Origin: Anaerolineales bacterium
Lineage (GTDB): Bacteria; Chloroflexota; Anaerolineae; Anaerolineales; E44-bin32
Reading direction: 5' to 3'
Assembly (NCBI GenBank): GCA_040899905.1
Contig: JBBDZX010000005.1
Location: 809,763-873,762 of the forward strand
Length of the DNA stretch: 64,000 nt
In this document: piece after piece, positions 43,154-52,100 of the stretch
How positions within the stretch are numbered: the first letter of the stretch is position 1
Layout of the letters: the number at the start of each line of letters is the position of its first letter
Program-made: the position numbers and the translations under genes
Notes under the pieces: generated by a model
What the model was told of the DNA's origin: nothing
Seen by the model: the letters and a program-made list of their open reading frames with translations, nothing else
Databases searched by the model: none

Positions 43154-44599
<1,446 letters not shown>

Positions 44600-44633: not shown

Positions 44634-45701
44634 TCAACCACCGCCCAGGCGTCGATCGACGGCTCGGGCCACGGGTCGAAGCCAGACTTGGTCGAGCTGT
44701 TCGGCCTGGAGTGCACGGACGGGCGCGGGCGAGGCCGCGAGCAGGTCCAGCCACTCCTGTAGGAAGCGCCACATGAGCGCGTGGTCCCAGAGTTCGTCCC
44801 ACACCGCGTCCTCCCAGGTGAACTCCACGCGTCGGGCGATCGCATCCCGATAGCCGCGGACGAGGTCCGCCGACGAGGGCACGTGGTCCGCAAACCACCA
44901 TTCGCTTTTCGTGACGAAGACGAGCAAGTCCATGATCCCGGGGCCGACCCCGGCCAGCTGCCAGTCGTACACGGATTGCGTCCCGTCCTGGAGCGATCCA
45001 ATGTTCCCGGGCCAATAGTCGCCATGCAAGAGCGTGCTCGATTCGCGGCGGAGCGGCGCGGCCACTTCGGCCGCGTGCGCGGTCAGACGTTCGAGCAAGC
45101 GGATCCGGTCGCCGGACGCGGTTTCCTTCCCAGCCTCCCTCGAGAAGCGTTCCATTGCCTGATCCGCGGCCGCCTGGTGTACGGCAAAGTCCTCCTCCAG
45201 GGGCCGGGCGAGCCATGGGAAGGCGACCAGGTCCTCGGCCAGTCCCCAGAAGCGATCGTGCAGGAGAGCCAGGGCTTCTACGGCAGCCAGATAGTCGTCC
45301 CGAGACCAATGCGCGGCATCGCGCGCCACGCGAATCTCCTCCAGGATCAGCCAGTCACCCGCGGGAGACGAGGCGATCAACTGGGGGACCGGGACGGGGA
45401 GCTGAGGGGCCAGCGAGCGGTAGACCCCGACCTCCCGGCGTCCGGCGCCCGCCGTGCCGGTGCGCGTCGTGCCGCTCGGTTCCTTGACCACCAGGCGGAT
45501 CGAGCTGGATTCCCCTCCCTCGAATTCCACCAGGGTGCCTCGCACCCGGCCGATGGCAGGACGGCGGAAGGGCACGGTCAAAGGGCGCACGTCCATGACG
45601 CGGAGCGCGGGCGCTGCCAGATACCTGCGCAGCCCGGCCTCCAGGTCGCCCCTCGAGAAGGGCCACTCCCAGTTTTCCTCGCCCCGCCGGGCGACGGCCA
45701 C
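44634..45701 (-). CDS. APH/choline-kinase-like phosphotransferase
   Basis: LVVKE, REVGVY, LILEE, LLHGDYWPGNI and VYDWQ motifs. Confidence 0.85.
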   Translation of the reverse strand: MAVARRGEENWEWPFSRGDLEAGLRRYLAAPALRVMDVRPLTVPFRRPAIGRVRGTLVEFEGGESSSIRLVVKEPSGTTRTGTAGAGRREVGVYRSLAPQLPVPVPQLIASSPAGDWLILEEIRVARDAAHWSRDDYLAAVEALALLHDRFWGLAEDLVAFPWLARPLEEDFAVHQAAADQAMERFSREAGKETASGDRIRLLERLTAHAAEVAAPLRRESSTLLHGDYWPGNIGSLQDGTQSVYDWQLAGVGPGIMDLLVFVTKSEWWFADHVPSSADLVRGYRDAIARRVEFTWEDAVWDELWDHALMWRFLQEWLDLLAASPAPVRALQAEQLDQVWLRPVARAVDRRLGGG

Positions 45702-45704
45702 CCC

Positions 45705-46562
45705 TCAGCCTCCCTCGAGCATGCGGAGGAAATCTTCGGCCGCCGCCGCCGGATCTGTGACCGGCCGATCCGGATCGTTGCGCAAATAGTGCAGGTGGTC
45801 CATGATCCACAGGTAGAGATCCGCCTCGGTGCGATCGGTGAACTCTTCGAGGATTCCCGAACTTCGGATGACCTGGGCCACGGGACGGTACAGGCTCTCG
45901 TACCAGTGGCGGATCGCGTCTTCGCTCGAGACTTCCCGGCCCAGCTCCTGCCCCAGGAAGTAGCGATGGACCGCCAGGTGTTCGATCAGGCGGTCATAGC
46001 CGCCCAGGATGGTCGGCGTGATTTCGACTCCAGAGAGCACGCGGTCGATTTGAGTCCGCTCGAGGAATTCGACCCGATCGCCCAGGCGTTCCAGGTCGTC
46101 CGGCTCCACGTCGGGCGTGAGCGGGACGCGGGCCCGGACCTCGCGCACCTCGGCTTCCAAGAATTCCTGGCCCTGGTTGCGCGCCACCGAGACTCGATGG
46201 TGACCATCGACGACGAAGTATACATCGCCCACCTGATAGAGGATGATCGGCGGCAAACTGATATCGAGATACCAGGCCCGATTCACGCGACGCCATCGCT
46301 CCTCGATGTGAGATTTCATCGGAAGGAACGCCCGATCGAAGTCCCGATAGCGATCGACGCTTCCGACAATGTTCGACAGCCGCACCGTCTTCAGGCCGCG
46401 GTAGATCGGTCCGCCTAAGTGAAGTTTTTCACGAACTTCCTCGAAGGCCAGCAGCTTGCGCGAGTGGCCCGAGATCGCGCCCAGAATCCCGCCGAAGAAC
46501 GCCCTCAGCCGCGCGCGGCGGAAGTCCATCCCCTCCGGGGTCGGCAATCCCGAAATCATCAT
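45705..46562 (-). CDS. ParB/Sulfiredoxin-like domain protein with DUF4032-like C-terminus
   Basis: IVGSVDRYRDFDRAFLP, LPPIILYQVG..YFVVDGHHRVSVAR and RTEADLYLWI; ATG 46562 in an ATGA overlap. Confidence 0.82.
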   Translation of the reverse strand: MMISGLPTPEGMDFRRARLRAFFGGILGAISGHSRKLLAFEEVREKLHLGGPIYRGLKTVRLSNIVGSVDRYRDFDRAFLPMKSHIEERWRRVNRAWYLDISLPPIILYQVGDVYFVVDGHHRVSVARNQGQEFLEAEVREVRARVPLTPDVEPDDLERLGDRVEFLERTQIDRVLSGVEITPTILGGYDRLIEHLAVHRYFLGQELGREVSSEDAIRHWYESLYRPVAQVIRSSGILEEFTDRTEADLYLWIMDHLHYLRNDPDRPVTDPAAAAEDFLRMLEGG

Positions 46563-47164
46563 GCCCCGATCTCCAAATTCCGGTACGGGAAGACATTCAC
46601 CACCCGGGTCCCGTCCAGCATCGTTTGGCTCTCGTCGACATTGGCGTGGATGTGCGAGTGGCCATGGACCATCAGACGCGGCCGAGCGGAACGGACGAGG
46701 TTCCGGAATGCCACAAATCCCCGATGCACCCGGTCCGGGCCTTCGTGGATCCCCCGCGGGGGTGCATGCGTAACCAAGACGTCGAAGCCGCGGCCGCGGA
46801 GTATGCGCCACAAGAGAATGGAGGGCAGCAGGGCGGCCGTTCGGAACCTCATTTCGTTTTCCGTGTATTGGTGGCGGCCCTCGGGTTTGTAGCGGAGACA
46901 GCCCCCCAGCCCGGCAAAACGAAGTCCGCCGCGCTCGACGATGCGTCCATCGATCGACTCCCCGCCCGGCACGGCGATGTCATCCGGGTCGTGATTGCCG
47001 GGCACGTACAACAAGGGGACATTCAGCTCCGTGACCAAATACTCCAGGTAGCCTGACGGCAAGTCCCCGCACCCCAGGATCAGGTCGACCTCTCGAAAAC
47101 GATCCTGCACAGCCTGGCTGTATAACGAGCCCACGACCTCATCACTGACAGCGAGAACACGCAC
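46559..47164 (-). CDS. Calcineurin-like metallophosphoesterase
   Basis: AVSD, CGDL, PGNHD, THAPP and HGHSH motifs. Confidence 0.9.
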   Translation of the reverse strand: MRVLAVSDEVVGSLYSQAVQDRFREVDLILGCGDLPSGYLEYLVTELNVPLLYVPGNHDPDDIAVPGGESIDGRIVERGGLRFAGLGGCLRYKPEGRHQYTENEMRFRTAALLPSILLWRILRGRGFDVLVTHAPPRGIHEGPDRVHRGFVAFRNLVRSARPRLMVHGHSHIHANVDESQTMLDGTRVVNVFPYRNLEIGA

Positions 47165-47183
47165 GCGGTTCAGTCTCCCAGCG

Positions 47184-47220
47184 AAACGAAAACCGGCTTC
47201 CCGTGGATCTGGGAAGCCGG
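47184..47220 (-). terminator. Intrinsic terminator 20 nt upstream of the metallophosphoesterase start
   Basis: CCGGCTTCCC-N8-GGGAAGCCGG followed by TTTTCGTTT on the minus strand. Confidence 0.75.
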
Positions 47221-47345
47221 GGCGTTCAACGCCCGCCGAATCCTCAGCCAGACCCTAGGGTCGATGGGTTTCACTCGGCGGGACGCTCGGAGGACTCATC
47301 GCGGAGAGTTCAGCGGTCCCCTCGCATTTGTCCATCTCCGTCGTG

Positions 47346-47434
47346 AGCAGATTCTTCGGCGCTGCGCGCCTCAGAATGACAGACGGAGGCGCCGACCCCT
47401 TGCAGGTCATTCTGAGCGAAGCGAAGAATCTACT
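47346..47434. repeat. Inverted pair of REP-like units (GTCATTCTGAGCGAAGCGAAGAATCT type)
   Basis: AGATTCTTCG..CTCAGAATGAC (47349-47380) faces GTCATTCTGAGCGAAGCGAAGAATCT (47406-47431). Confidence 0.75.
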
Positions 47435-47547
47435 AGCGTGCCGGGTGTAGGTGTGCTTGCTAAGAGATGGCTGATCTCATAAGGGCCGGCGTTCGACTCG
47501 CGGTGAGGTGTCTTCGTCACCAAGAAGTTTCTTCGGCTCATGAGGGC

Positions 47548-47576
47548 AGTATAGAAGAAGGGGCCTCGCCTGTCAA
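47548..47576 (-). promoter_or_regulatory. Near-consensus sigma70 promoter overlapping the metK stop codon
   Basis: TTGACA(47576-47571)-17bp-TATACT(47553-47548). Confidence 0.75.
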
Positions 47577-48814
47577 CGCTCGGTTGCAGGCGAGGCCTCA
47601 ATCGGCGGGGCAGCGGCCGCCAAGCGGACCGCCTCGAGCCGGTCCAGCCGCTCCCATGGCAGATCGAGGTCATCCCGGCCGAAGTGGCCATAGCTCGCGG
47701 TCTGCTGGTAGATCGGCCGCCGCAGATCCAAGTCTCGGATGATGGCACCCGGACGCAAGTCGAAGGTGCTTTCAATCAAACGCTCGATGTCCACATCCGG
47801 AAGTCGCCCGGTGCCGAACGTCTCGACATGAATGGACAACGGGTGCGCCACGCCGATGGCGTAGGCGACCTGAATCTCACATCGATCTGCCAACCCGGCG
47901 GCGACGATGTGCTTGGCGACCCAGCGGGCCGCGTAGGCCCCGGACCGGTCGACCTTCGTCGGGTCCTTGCCGCTGAAGCATCCGCCGCCGTGGCGTCCCA
48001 TCCCGCCGTAGCTGTCGACGATGATCTTGCGGCCGGTGAGGCCGGCATCGCCCATGGGTCCCCCGACGACAAATCGGCCGGTCGGGTTGACGAAGATCTG
48101 AAGCTGGGCATCCACGAGGTCCGGCGGCAAGACATGGCCCAGGACGTGCTCCATAACACCCTCGCGGATCTCCTCCCCATCAACGTCGGCGGAGTGCTGC
48201 GTGCTGACCAGTACCGTCGCAAGCCGCGCTGGCTTGCCATGCCGGTATTCGACCGTGACCTGCGCCTTGCCATCCGGGCGGGCCCATGGCAGAGAGCCGT
48301 CCCGCCGGGCCGTCGCCAGTTGCCGGGTGATCCGGTGGGCGAGAAAAATGGGCAGCGGCATCAAGGTCGGGGTCTCATTGCAGGCGAATCCGAACATCAT
48401 CCCCTGGTCACCCGCTCCCAGCGACTCGATCGCGTCGGCGCCGCTGCTCCCGCGCGACTCGAGGGCATGGTCCACCCCGCGTGCGATATCCGGGCTCTGG
48501 CTGGCGATGGCGAGCTGAATGGCGCATGTCCTGCCGTCGAAGCCCTTCTCGCTGTTGTCGAATCCAACATCCAGGATCACCTTGCGAGCCACATCGGCGA
48601 AGTTGACCTGGGCACGGCTGGTGACCTCGCCGAGCAACAACACAAATCCGGTTTTGGTGGCCGCCTCGCACGCCACCCGCGACATCGGGTCGTCCTTCAG
48701 ACAGGCATCGACCACCGCATCCGAGATCTGGTCGCACAGTTTGTCCGGATGTCCTTCGGTGACGGACTCGGAGGTGAAGAAGGTGCGGGGCGAGCTCATG
48801 AAAGACAGACTCAT
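47573..48814 (-). CDS. metK: S-adenosylmethionine synthetase
   Basis: [33 protein letters not shown] and YGHFGR motifs. Confidence 0.98.
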
Positions 48815-48833
48815 TCGACCTTGTCCTCGCTAG

Positions 48834-48862
48834 AAAAGAGCCCCTTCCTTTAGAGAAGGGGC
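48834..48862 (-). terminator. Expression-platform terminator of the SAM riboswitch
   Basis: GCCCCTTC-TCTAAAG-GAAGGGGC followed by TCTTTT. Confidence 0.8.
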
Positions 48863-48883
48863 GTCAGGGCCGGGCCAGACTCC

Positions 48884-48985
48884 CTCTCATCTTCCAGAAC
48901 GATCTGCCGGATTTGGCACCACGCCCCTTGGGGGTAGGTTGCCGAGGCGTCGCAGGGCCGGTCCCTCAGCCTCTCTGGATAAGAG
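48884..48985 (-). ncRNA. SAM-I (S-box) riboswitch
   Basis: CTCTTATCCAGAGAGGCTGAGGGA..GGCCC...GGCAACC...GGTGCCAAATCC...AAGATGAGAG upstream of metK. Confidence 0.95.
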
Positions 48986-49012
48986 TGTTTGGGGCAAATC
49001 GGTTGTCGGCGC

Positions 49013-49041
49013 ATAGTACCAGAACGTGGCGAGGGAGTCAA
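49013..49041 (-). promoter_or_regulatory. Sigma70 promoter of the SAM riboswitch and metK
   Basis: TTGACT-17bp-TACTAT. Confidence 0.7.
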
Positions 49042-49175
49042 CGGGGCGGCCCTGGGACCGACGTTGCCTTGACCGGCTGCCGCCGGAGCCTCATGATAGG
49101 ATATCCTACCGTGCATACCTCTTCGGACTCATGTGGCGCGGCGGACATAACCATTCCGCCCGGCGGCCATCCTCC

Positions 49176-52100
49176 TTGACCTCACCCGCGGCACCTTTCG
49201 GCCCGATCTCCACGGTCGCCCCCGCTGCTACAAAGGGCGGCGTAAGCCTCCGTTTCGCATCCCTCTTCCTATTGCTTGCCCTATTCGCCCTTGGGTCCGA
49301 CCGCCTCCATCGCGGCGGTGCGGCCGCCCAAGGCTTAGTCGCGGAGATCCAGGGCACCGTCGTCGACAGGGCGACGGGCTCGCCCGTCGCCGGCGCCGGC
49401 GTATCGATTCCGGATCTGAATCTGACGGACACCACGGACGGGGCCGGCCGTTTCGGCTGGAGCTCGGTCGGGATCCCCCAGACGCCATACCCAACGACGA
49501 TCACGGTCCAAGCCTCGGGCTATGGGGATTGGACCATCGTCGACGTTCGCTTGATCGCCGACGATACGTTGATTCTGAGCGTCGAACTCGGTCCCGATCC
49601 GGTTCAGGTCCTGGTCCCGCCGGCTGCCTCCGACCGCACCTCTACTCCGGCGGAACAGCTTGCCGCCGCCCAATTCGACTCGGTGACCGTGGACCAGACG
49701 GGGCTGCCCATCCCGCGCACGATTCGAGTGCGGGTGACCGGGTATCCCTACTGTGACACCAGCCGCCCCTACACGGTCCAGACCCTCGACTTCGCCGAGT
49801 ACGCCAAGCACGTCCTGCCGAATGAATGGGTGTCCTCCTGGCCGCGCGAGGCGCTTCGGGCCGGAGCCATGGCGGTCAAGATGTACGCCTGGTCGTATGT
49901 CGCCGCGGGCGGGAAGTGGCCGGACGCGGATGTGTACGACAGCACGTGCGATCAGGTCTACAACCCCAGCGTCGCCTACGGCTCCACGGACCGAGCGGTA
50001 GATTTCACGTTTGGTTGGCGCCTGACCCGCGATCTGGGGCTGGTGCGCACCTTCTATCGAGCGCATCTGAGCCAGTGTCCGGGCGGCCTCGGCAGCAATT
50101 GCATGGGCCAATACGAATCCCGGGATATGGCCCTCGACCTCTACACCTGGGACGAAATCCTTCTTTACTTCTATGACAACAGCGTGGTTTCAGCCGTCAG
50201 TCCGCCGCCCGGCGGTTGGTCGCTGCGATTTGAGGGCAATGGGTATGGCGACCTGGACCGGATCAAGGTCCAGCTGGATTCGCCGGCGCGTCCGGTCGAT
50301 GTCGGTCTGACCGACTTCACCGTGGAATGGTGGATGAAGGCTGCCTCCGGCGAAAACGGCAGTCCGGCGTGTACCCCTGGCGGGAATAATTGGGTTCTGG
50401 GCAATACCGTTCTGGACCGCGATGTCTCCGGCCCGGGCGACTTCGGAGACTTTGGAGTCTCCCTGTCCGGCGGGGTGATCGCCTTCGGCGTCCACAATGG
50501 GACGGTGGGGGAAACCCTGTGCGGAGTGACCCCGATCGCCAATGGGGCGTGGCACCATGTGGCGGTCACGCGCCGGGCCTCGGATGGCTGGATGGCTCTG
50601 TACGTGGACGGAGCGCTCGACCGCGAGGTCGATGGCCCGGATGGAGATCTCAGCTACCGGGATGGACGGCCGTCCGGGCTCCCCAATGACCCCTTCCTTG
50701 TGATCGGCGCCGAAAAACACGACACCAATCCATCGGCGAACCCTTCGTTCCGAGGTTGGCTCGACGAAATCCGGTTCTCGACCGTTGTCCGCTATGCGGG
50801 GCCGTACGCCACCCCCTCCGGTCCATTCACCTCCGATGGCGATACGGCCGCGCTCTTCCACTTCAATGAGGGCTTCGGAAACACCATCGGCGATGGCGCC
50901 GGAGCCGCCGGGGGACCGAGCCAGGGATTGCGGGTCTACGGCGGGATCGTAAATGGCCCCGAGTGGACGAGCGACTCGCCCTGGTACGTCGCCCCGACGC
51001 CGACGGCCACACTCGTCCCTACCGCGACGGCCGGCGGCGCGACTGCCACCCCCACTCCGACGCGGACCCCGACAAGTACGAACACGGCCTCGCCGACTCC
51101 CACGCGTACGAACACGCCCTCGCTGACGCCGACGGCCACCGCCACAAGCGTCACGCTGACGCCCACGCCGATGCTCCCGGGAGACGTCGCCCCCGGGTTG
51201 AACTTCCAGACCGTCGCCAGCGGCTTCACCGAACCCTTGTTCGTGACCCATGCCGGCGACCAATCTGGCCGGCTATTCGTCGTCCAGCGCAGCGGTCTGG
51301 TTCGCATCATATCGCCTTCGGGTGCGATTGTGAGTCCGGCGTTCCTAGACTTATCCTCCCTCATCACGAAATCAGGGTCCGAGCAGGGCGTGCTCGGCAT
51401 GGCCTTTCACTCCGACTACGTGAACAACGGGCTGTTCTATGTCACCTATAACAACACCGGCGGCGCCATCACCCTAGCCCGCTACCGTGTTTGGGCCGAC
51501 AACCCGGACCGGGCGGATGCCTCCAGCGGTACGGTGCTCCTTTCCATTCCGAAGCCGTACACCAATCACAACGGCGGCATGATCGCCTTCGGGGATGACG
51601 GGATGCTGTACATGTCGACCGGCGACGGCGGCGGGGGCGGCGATCCCCTCGGCAGCGGCCAGTCGCCGACGACATTGCTCGGGAAGATCCTGAGATTGGA
51701 CGTGGACACAGCCAGCCCGTACGCCGTCCCGATCGACAACCCGTTCTACAACGACCCGAACCCAGCGGTGCGTGAAGAGATTTGGGACTATGGCTTCCGC
51801 AACCCGTGGCGTTTCTCGTTCGATCGGTCGACGGGCGACCTGTGGATCGGCGATGTCGGCCAGGGGAACCGGGAGGAGATCGATTTCGAGCCCTCGGCCT
51901 CGGCCGGCGGGCTGAACTACGGTTGGAATGTGATGGAAGGCACCTCGTGCTACAGCCCTTCGTCGGGCTGCGACATGTCCGGCAAAGTCCTCCCCGTCAT
52001 CGACTACAACACGCATGACACGGGCAACTGCGCCGTGACAGGGGGCTACATCTATCGCGGTTCCCGCTACCCATCTCTCTGGGGTGTGTACTTCTACGCC

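Follow-up and report, generated by a model that had tools for sequence, protein, structure and literature searches.

What is encoded in the 408 nucleotides (nt) that separate metK (47573-48814) from the metallophosphoesterase gene (46559-47164) in the genome of an Anaerolineales bacterium (Chloroflexota; GenBank assembly GCA_040899905.1)? The question arises from a first-pass annotation of a stretch of 64,000 nt (contig JBBDZX010000005.1, positions 809,763 to 873,762 of the forward strand), here called the window. That annotation placed in the spacer a structured RNA of about 355 nt with its own promoter and terminator, and regarded it either as a new riboswitch or attenuator controlling read-through into the following operon and proS, or as a large RNA standing on its own. 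All features below lie on the minus strand and are given in window coordinates, unless contig coordinates (C5 or C1) are indicated; loci are labelled L, genomes G (G000 is this genome), genera g and families f (f1 is the family of G000). From the comparison with related genomes we conclude that 47181-47317 is probably the G000 copy of a ribosome-mediated, trp-like transcription attenuator with a leader peptide, which lies before the proS operon and would sense the translation of proline codons.

Both signals expected at the ends of such an RNA are present where the first-pass annotation had seen them. A sigma-70-type promoter (TTGACA-17-TATACT, 47548-47576), whose -35 box overlaps the stop codon of metK, agrees with the consensus in 11 of 12 positions. 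Scanning and folding revealed an intrinsic terminator at 47183-47220, composed of segments 3 and 4 (CCGGCUUCCC-AGAUCCAC-GGGAAGCCGG) and a U tract (47192-47183); its hairpin (47220-47193) has 10 pairs, 8 of them G-C, is followed by TTTTCGTTTC and has a folding energy of -21.4 kcal/mol when considered alone. Scans of 46500-49200 yielded 3 promoter-like sites (0.4 ± 0.6 in shuffled sequences) and 4 terminator-like sites (1.4 ± 1.3 in shuffled sequences). The pairings from which a long rod had been drawn could also be located: CUCACCGCG (47507-47499) pairs with CGCGAUGAG (47303-47295) in 8 of 9 positions, the strings being compared by eye, and CCAUCUC (47470-47464) with GAGAUGG (47338-47332) in 7 of 7. 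So could the 3' domain, a stem formed by CCCGCCGAGU and GAUUCGGCGGG, and the two 8-mers said to compete with it, GAGUCCUC (47297-47290) and GAGGAUUC (47245-47238). The complete spacer folds with -164.3 kcal/mol as compared to -146.9 ± 5.6 kcal/mol for 100 shuffled sequences (z = -3.08), none of which reached this value, and a large share of the energy is contributed by a palindrome. Rfam gave no match to the spacer, neither at the gathering score nor at E <= 10. One contig from DNA sequencing runs, possibly of the source sample, is identical to 46500-47977 with 0 differences, and other runs (4 in total) cover pieces.

The gene for the phosphoesterase was found in 51 of the 61 genomes of the family, and 30 loci were retrieved. 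Relatives share a block that begins with the promoter TTGACA-17-TATAAT, has an ATG 6-7 nt farther on, and continues with a C-rich stretch resembling GTCCCGCC and a box, GGTCTGGYTGAGGC; its 3' part consists of a variable hairpin followed by CGGCTTCCC-AGATCnnn-GGGAAGCCG and a run of T. A covariance model built from 28 relatives, G000 being left out (model R1), matches 47181-47317 over the full model length with 54.5 bits (E 1.1e-11), and this is the only significant match in the window and in G000. The full-length scores of the sequences from which the model was built range from 60.8 to 123 bits. What had been described as 3' domain and terminator is the conserved block of the relatives, and the collection of related loci, proposed earlier as a check, revealed conservation outside the repetitive extragenic palindrome (REP) at the tip of the rod, namely in 47181-47317. 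The structured RNA of about 355 nt did not survive as a unit: only these 137 nt, the sole part common to relatives, are conserved, and the rod with its tip consists of a dispersed repeat found in no relative's leader.

In relatives, -10 box and U tract delimit a leader of some 125-150 nt. In alignments of 28 leaders of f1 (A2) and of 28 leaders of three families (A3) the conserved letters are confined to the Pro codons of a short open reading frame (ORF), the box and the terminator; the interval of 20-35 nt between box and terminator varies in length and sequence. The leader is present in 31 genomes of f1. Among 150 additional genomes from the order, it was detected in 6 of 12 from f1 and 7 of 12 from f14, and in none of the 126 from 16 other families; a class-wide sample added a third family, f63, with the same box and terminator. 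A model of the box-terminator platform only (R2) found no second copy in G000, in which a loose regular expression for further copies of the platform gave 223 unspecific matches. When applied to five other genomes, R2 detected one further real element (a Lys leader before lysX) and gave one false match, which resembles a thiamine pyrophosphate (TPP) riboswitch. A variant leader in g12 (L043 and L046) has the same promoter and terminator and no ATG near +1; only its terminator part matches R1, and its 5' part is differently conserved (...CTCTTCGCAGGC..CCTTTGTCTGAGT...).

The leader contains a short ORF. Among 29 distinct candidates of f1 with promoter and terminator, there are 24 in which the -10 box is followed, 6-7 nt on, by an ATG that opens a frame of 13-22 codons; L034, L065, L078 and seven leaders in f14 are further cases, and the lengths in the two families (f1 and f14) range from 13 to 26 codons. 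In 20 of the 24 the frame closes within the box; in the other 4, all from g20, the stop is located 12 nt before it. These 24 ORFs come from 12 genera and have five lengths (13, 17, 20, 21 and 22 codons), and the stop is kept though varying between TGA, TAG and TAA. In L040 and L050, tct ggc tga is replaced by tca ggg tag, which is synonymous and exchanges stop for stop. An unrelated ATG would be in frame with the stop, and without an earlier stop, with a chance of about 1/5 (a rough estimate); a frame ending at that stop in 11 genera is far beyond chance.

The leader peptides share a P-x-P(-P) core (examples are MFAPMNPQPVPYAHPGPSNRSG, MMAPRLPVPPACVTLTCRSG and MESGMSKLPFPPCPPRSACWPG). The Pro positions are fixed at 16, 14, 12 and 11 codons before the stop, and the Pro codons lie about 40, 34, 28 and 25 nt before the box; in g20 the ORF is shorter, yet the distance from the Pro codons to the box is the same. 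When one representative per genus is counted, Pro makes up 45 of 244 codons. The Pro codons used in the leaders are CCG (45), CCA (24), CCC (11) and CCT (10). CCA thus accounts for 24 of 90 leader Pro codons and for 4 of 79 in four G000 genes, a comparison across genomes and therefore a weak one; the excess may reflect the choice of a rare codon or a pairing of CCAG with the box. An ATG only 6-7 nt after a consensus -10 box implies a leaderless mRNA, and we infer that translation of the ORF starts without a leader.

Box and terminator are complementary to each other. The box, GGUCUGG-YU-GAGGC, is nearly invariant in relatives; GGUCUGG pairs with CCAGAUC and GAGGC with GCUUC, which together represent loop and 5' arm of the terminator. 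The duplex has -15 to -29 kcal/mol in 20 canonical leaders and is better than with shuffled boxes (p <= 0.05) in 18 of them. The cells of this antiterminator are paired to 86.6% in A2 and 82.7% in A3, as compared to 26-62% with a slid partner. In lineages with a changed loop (g15 and g16) the box is changed, too: it pairs with its own partner with -17.5 to -29.1 kcal/mol, with canonical partners only with -14.3 to -16.4 kcal/mol, and 4 of 7 variants have no equally good partner in any other genus. In 10 of 24 leaders the antiterminator helix is part of the minimum-energy fold of the nascent RNA. As for the competing structure, 98.8% of the cells of the relatives' terminator pair, and 2 pairs are changed on both sides.

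The leader is linked to proS. Of the 31 genomes of f1 that have the leader, 30 carry proS farther downstream, in the same orientation and on the same contig; in the remaining one the locus is cut by the contig end. No other gene follows the leader without exception. The element invariably stands before the first gene of its operon, and proS is the last; the intervening genes (mazG, phosphoesterase, an unnamed ORF, APH-family kinase) vary. Where the phosphoesterase gene is located elsewhere, the leader remains with (mazG)-kinase-proS, and none of 18 phosphoesterase loci unlinked to proS has a leader. In f14 the leader precedes mazG-x-proS, with proS in 6 of 7 loci, and in L123 it stands directly before proS; a kinase gene was not found in the retrieved f14 loci. 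The f14 peptides have the form M-L-(M/T)-N-P-N-P-S-P...(R/W)-S-G-stop, for example MLTNPNPSP...RSG-stop. Upstream, metK is found in 19 of 30 loci, and a gene for a MazG-like protein of 98 amino acids lies directly before the phosphoesterase gene in 18 of 30. Two loci (L036 of G070 and L054 of G019) have, between leader and phosphoesterase gene, about 200-300 nt of apparently decayed MazG-like sequence, which suggests that mazG was lost repeatedly in f1.

We propose the following mechanism. Transcription would start at the AUG 6-7 nt past the -10 box and yield a leaderless mRNA, on which a ribosome would translate the ORF of 13-26 codons with its P-x-P(-P) cluster in the middle. With Pro-tRNA(Pro) plentiful, the ribosome would reach the stop codon and, since the stop lies inside or just before the box, mask it; the hairpin with its U tract could then form and transcription would terminate. 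A ribosome stalled on the Pro codons 25-40 nt upstream would leave the box free to pair with 5' arm and loop of the terminator (GCUUC-CCAGAUC), and RNA polymerase would read into (mazG)-(phosphoesterase)-(ORF)-(kinase)-proS. Anatomy, complementarity and the link to proS are established by sequence comparison. That initiation is leaderless, that ribosomes stall and in which direction the switch responds we infer from known leader-peptide attenuators and from the Pro-codon leaders of Salmonella (PMC3641672).

How does the copy in G000 fit this scheme? All four pairing segments are intact, and the Pro codons are at the family spacing. Segment 1, the Pro-codon stretch GUCCCGCCGAGU (47273-47284), pairs in the fold with 47242-47232, the stem of the 3' domain; Pro codons like those in GTCCCGCC are kept in relatives. 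Segment 2 is the antiterminator box GGUCUGGCUGAGG (47242-47254), recognized from the fold and from the R1 match, and its duplex with 5' arm and loop of the terminator has -17.4 kcal/mol. Between the core and the promoter and start codon of the family type (47576-47539) there are, however, about 220 nt, part of which is a dispersed repeat; its insertion has split the leader frame in two, as judged by frame analysis. ORF1 (47407-47541), with 44 codons, starts with a leaderless ATG at the predicted +1, 6 nt after the -10 box, and ends with TGA (47409-47407) inside the repeat; the position of its ATG agrees with that in the leader ORFs of 24 relatives, its peptide is unlike theirs. ORF2 (47255-47410), with 51 codons, has an ATG that overlaps the stop of ORF1 (ATGA) and ends with TAG (47257-47255) 1 nt before the box. 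Its last 14 codons, counted from the ATG at 47299, read MSPPSVPPSETHRP and hold an SPPSVPP core at family spacing; the Pro codons at 47293, 47290, 47281 and 47278 are 39, 36, 27 and 24 nt away from the box.

Several findings weigh against an attenuator. The covariation check that the first-pass annotation had suggested came out positive for the terminator, whose score was reached in 0 of 500 shuffles; for the antiterminator, column-wise covariation did not rise significantly above shuffles (0.101 vs 0.109 in A2, 0.142 vs 0.142 in A3), and at most one of its pairs is changed on both sides in either alignment. The antiterminator helix therefore rests on conserved complementarity and on the register-shifted lineages, and we regard it as well supported, not proven. 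The 1:2 duplex, between Pro-codon stretch and box, does not surpass what shuffled sequences give (z +1.0 to -2.2), and the U tract is weak or lacking in some g5 leaders. CCN triplets number 45, 24 and 43 in the three frames, frame 2 (43) nearly equalling frame 0 (45), so that C-richness alone is not frame-specific; with 3-6 Pro codons per canonical leader, and 2 in g20 and L042, the Pro codons are fewer and less tandem than the cognate codons in his or phe leaders. In 10 loci linked to proS the leader is missing (G005, G006, G017, G018, G051 and G076) or cut down to its terminator part (G045, G011, G046 and G020). Two more such points concern G000 itself: the stop of its leaderless ORF is 153 nt upstream of the box, and no ribosome-binding site is evident for the ATGs at 47335 and 47299, which makes coupling of a ribosome to the box doubtful in this genome. 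The same two points would be explained if the G000 copy were a decayed relic, uncoupled from its ORF by the insertion of the repeat and the loss of mazG, with the hairpin acting as terminator of metK and the operon being fed by leak-through or by an unseen promoter. Consistent with such a decay, the terminator scan found no terminator between the metK stop and 47220, which makes the hairpin at 47220 the first one downstream of metK, whereas L029 has a separate hairpin right after metK; G045 retains only the terminator after metK; and two queries of the approximately 80% complete G000 assembly found no mazG-like gene in the spacer or elsewhere (best tblastn E 0.21). We nevertheless consider it somewhat unlikely. 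The four segments, the Pro spacing, the promoter and the ATG are intact, and 54.5 bits, although below 60.8-123, are well above noise; the phosphoesterase gene starts with GTG at 47164, and the 18 nt between U tract and start codon leave no room for another promoter. The ATGA overlap could allow a ribosome terminating on ORF1 to restart and to reach the box; because ATGA belongs to every copy of the repeat, the overlap of ORF1 and ORF2 may on the other hand be chance. The G000 copy may thus either be kept working as a switch by restart at ATGA or be a relic that mainly terminates metK transcripts. Within G045 (g10), the loci L064, L106 and L121 show the terminator part directly after the metK stop and before kinase-proS, without leader ORF and box.

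Other readings accept or replace the attenuator to different degrees. The leader might respond not to the charging of tRNA(Pro) but to slow formation of Pro-Pro bonds, and thus to elongation factor P (EF-P) or the state of translation, or it might encode an arrest peptide with the tail (W/R/G)-(S/P)-G-stop. Fifteen of the listed leaders contain consecutive Pro-Pro (peptides read by eye), the tail (R/W/G)-S-G-stop is kept in three families including the Lys-type leaders described below, and a response to EF-P is reported for the Pro-codon leaders of mgtA and mgtB in Salmonella (PMC6460261, PMC5299641). The universal feature is P-x-P, however, not P-P, which g20, f14 and several others do not have; the tail codons double as antiterminator strand, so that constraint on the RNA accounts for their conservation; and a tail common to Lys-type and Pro-type leaders cannot carry specificity for an amino acid. 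We therefore judge a different signal to be unlikely by a good margin. A metabolite riboswitch or a T-box-like RNA as the element controlling the terminator is extremely improbable. Promoter, long structured leader, terminator and competing helix would all suit one, and the S-adenosylmethionine (SAM) riboswitch nearby shows that the organism uses such devices. Against it, no Rfam family, T-box included, matches the spacer or, at E <= 0.1, the leader in the loci of 10 relatives, where only SAM riboswitches upstream of metK were found; nothing outside ORF, box and terminator is conserved, the 20-35 nt from box to terminator being variable; and the leaders of relatives have only about 125-150 nt. 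Of the riboswitch or attenuator first suggested for read-through into the proS operon, the attenuator is supported, with its conserved leader and proS downstream, and the riboswitch, with neither an Rfam match nor a non-coding conserved core, is not. A separate small RNA of about 355 nt acting in trans, the other original suggestion, would also have its own promoter and terminator, and a terminated attenuator RNA, rnTrpL, can act in trans in other bacteria (PMC6614838). It is very improbable all the same: the 5' 220 nt are specific to G000 and made of a mobile repeat, everything beyond the conserved 137 nt being repeat and G000-specific flanks, and the terminated product of relatives would have only about 115-140 nt.

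From where does the rod come? The repeat copies identify 47341-47450 as an inserted dispersed repeat with two inverted hairpin units (47406-47430 and 47350-47380), 25 nt apart. A unit has the form GTCATTCTGAG-variable stem-CGAAGAATC, its flanks are common to other copies, and it makes the tip of the rod; the palindrome that had been called REP-like is indeed a dispersed repeat, in G000 as well as in relatives. Copies in G000 include C5:445762-445918, C5:902399-902533 (unit C5:902399-902429) and C1:152922-153093; further ones are C5:431672-431861, C5:459285-459466 and C5:759154-759386. A regular expression allowing <=2 substitutions per arm has 35 matches in G000, several of them clearly due to chance; about 25 were judged to be real. 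The units usually form inverted pairs about 100-140 nt apart. Of 40 further genomes from this order, 19 also carry copies; the relatives' leaders and spacers at this locus are free of them. Judged from these copies, the long rod is a by-product of the insertion and not a conserved unit. Within the pairs lies a segment of about 95 nt, which is conserved between copies, has a loop of the UUCG type and shows seemingly compensatory changes; three other copies of the repeat gave no match in Rfam.

The REP hairpins tagged with CGTC or TGTC and the Ssn-related motifs are likewise short palindromes that often form inverted pairs, lie between genes and occur in many lineages (PMC3733652, PMC11893778). 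The insert differs from these systems in that no GIY-YIG gene flanked by its repeat was found in G000. A search of this approximately 80% complete assembly for GIY-YIG (PF01541) gave two matches and no Ssn link to the repeat. One match falls within a frame of 634 amino acids, presumably UvrC. The second corresponds to a short ORF (C5:368629-368847, L112); on either side of it stands a copy, in direct orientation, of another element, which is about 70 nt long and contains ...CCCCTTCAACTACGGG...CTCACGACGCCCTCCGCTCAGGGTGCTTG.

In f63 (genus g132; L128-L131 and L142) Lys-rich leader peptides (MEKKQGKKQMPDRRSG and ...KKQVKKQTPDRRVW) accompany the shared box and terminator, ahead of lysX and of a gene resembling that for homocitrate synthase. 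They are likely to be lysine attenuators of the alpha-aminoadipate pathway. The codons of the leader follow the amino acid of the downstream genes (Pro with proS, Lys with the lysine pathway), as a sensor that reads codons would predict. The lysine (alpha-aminoadipate) cluster of Thermus thermophilus reportedly has a leader with Lys codons ahead of homocitrate synthase; the likeness concerns the sister element in f63, not that in the window. We put forward, as a tentative and rather unlikely extension, that Anaerolineae possess a modular attenuator cassette of box (GGUCUGG...), (R/W)-S-G-stop tail and matching terminator loop, in which sensor codons are swapped: Pro for proS in two families, Lys for two operons in a third. 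The tail would be a programmed signal for slow termination that holds the ribosome on the antiterminator strand, and the sensor of G000 may have survived the insertion via restart at ATGA. If true, the platform shared with the Lys-type leaders suggests that attenuators gain specificities by codon swap.

The remaining features of the locus can be described briefly. Pfam assigns the operon of G000 as metallophosphoesterase, an ORF within 45705-46811, APH-family kinase (44634-45701) and proS (43154-44587), in this order. The ParB label given earlier to the middle gene was not reproduced: at E <= 0.01, neither Pfam nor NCBIfam assigned it to a family. As listed, this ORF overlaps the phosphoesterase gene by about 250 nt; relatives align only from residue ~14-109, and its true start is therefore probably located farther downstream. 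The sole Rfam match in the window is the SAM riboswitch (SAM-I, S-box) at 48884-48985 upstream of metK, with 87.5 bits; a SAM-I riboswitch before metK is also found in the relatives L059, L065 and L082.

What would an attenuator mean here? If the proposal is true, the uncultured Anaerolineae have a testable regulatory device that links the supply of proline, via the charging of tRNA(Pro), to proS; proS joins the short list of synthetase genes controlled by a leader peptide and not by a T-box; and a leaderless sensory mini-ORF exists outside the Actinobacteria. For annotation, a conserved "intergenic" block is explained, and the long structured RNA seen here becomes an artefact of insertion. 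Searches covering the main text of papers found no report of a leader-peptide attenuator for proS.

This leader adds a member to a classic class of control elements and does not represent a new type of RNA. Leader-peptide attenuators are known for pheST of gamma-proteobacteria; for Streptomyces, a report that also cites pheST places them upstream of trpS and leuS (PMC1262725). In common with the leader described here, these systems have a short leader ORF rich in cognate codons, an intrinsic terminator ahead of the synthetase genes and, as is proposed for the proS leader, an alternative helix governed by the position of the ribosome. The leader described here differs from them in the amino acid and gene (Pro and proS), in the lineage (class Anaerolineae of the Chloroflexota), in its apparently leaderless start and in a stop codon that lies within the antiterminator strand. 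Comparable for proline are the leaders of mgtCBR (mgtP) and mgtA (mgtL) in Salmonella: they, too, have a short ORF with conserved Pro codons, the translation of which chooses between leader structures, and expression rises as proline-charged tRNA(Pro) falls, according to the text cited (PMC3641672). There the targets are a Mg2+ transporter and virulence, translation starts at a Shine-Dalgarno sequence, and the same source contrasts the leaders with attenuators that have an intrinsic terminator. In the present case the control would be directed at the tRNA(Pro)-charging enzyme, with a hairpin of the canonical type and its U tract as read-out. The short polycysteine ORFs of mycobacteria (10.1101/834739) are, as is proposed for the ORF before proS, leaderless, sensory, rich in one codon and the first cistron of the operon for that amino acid. 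Unlike the leader before proS, they act on access to the next gene's ribosome-binding site instead of on a terminator, and they belong to another amino acid and another phylum.

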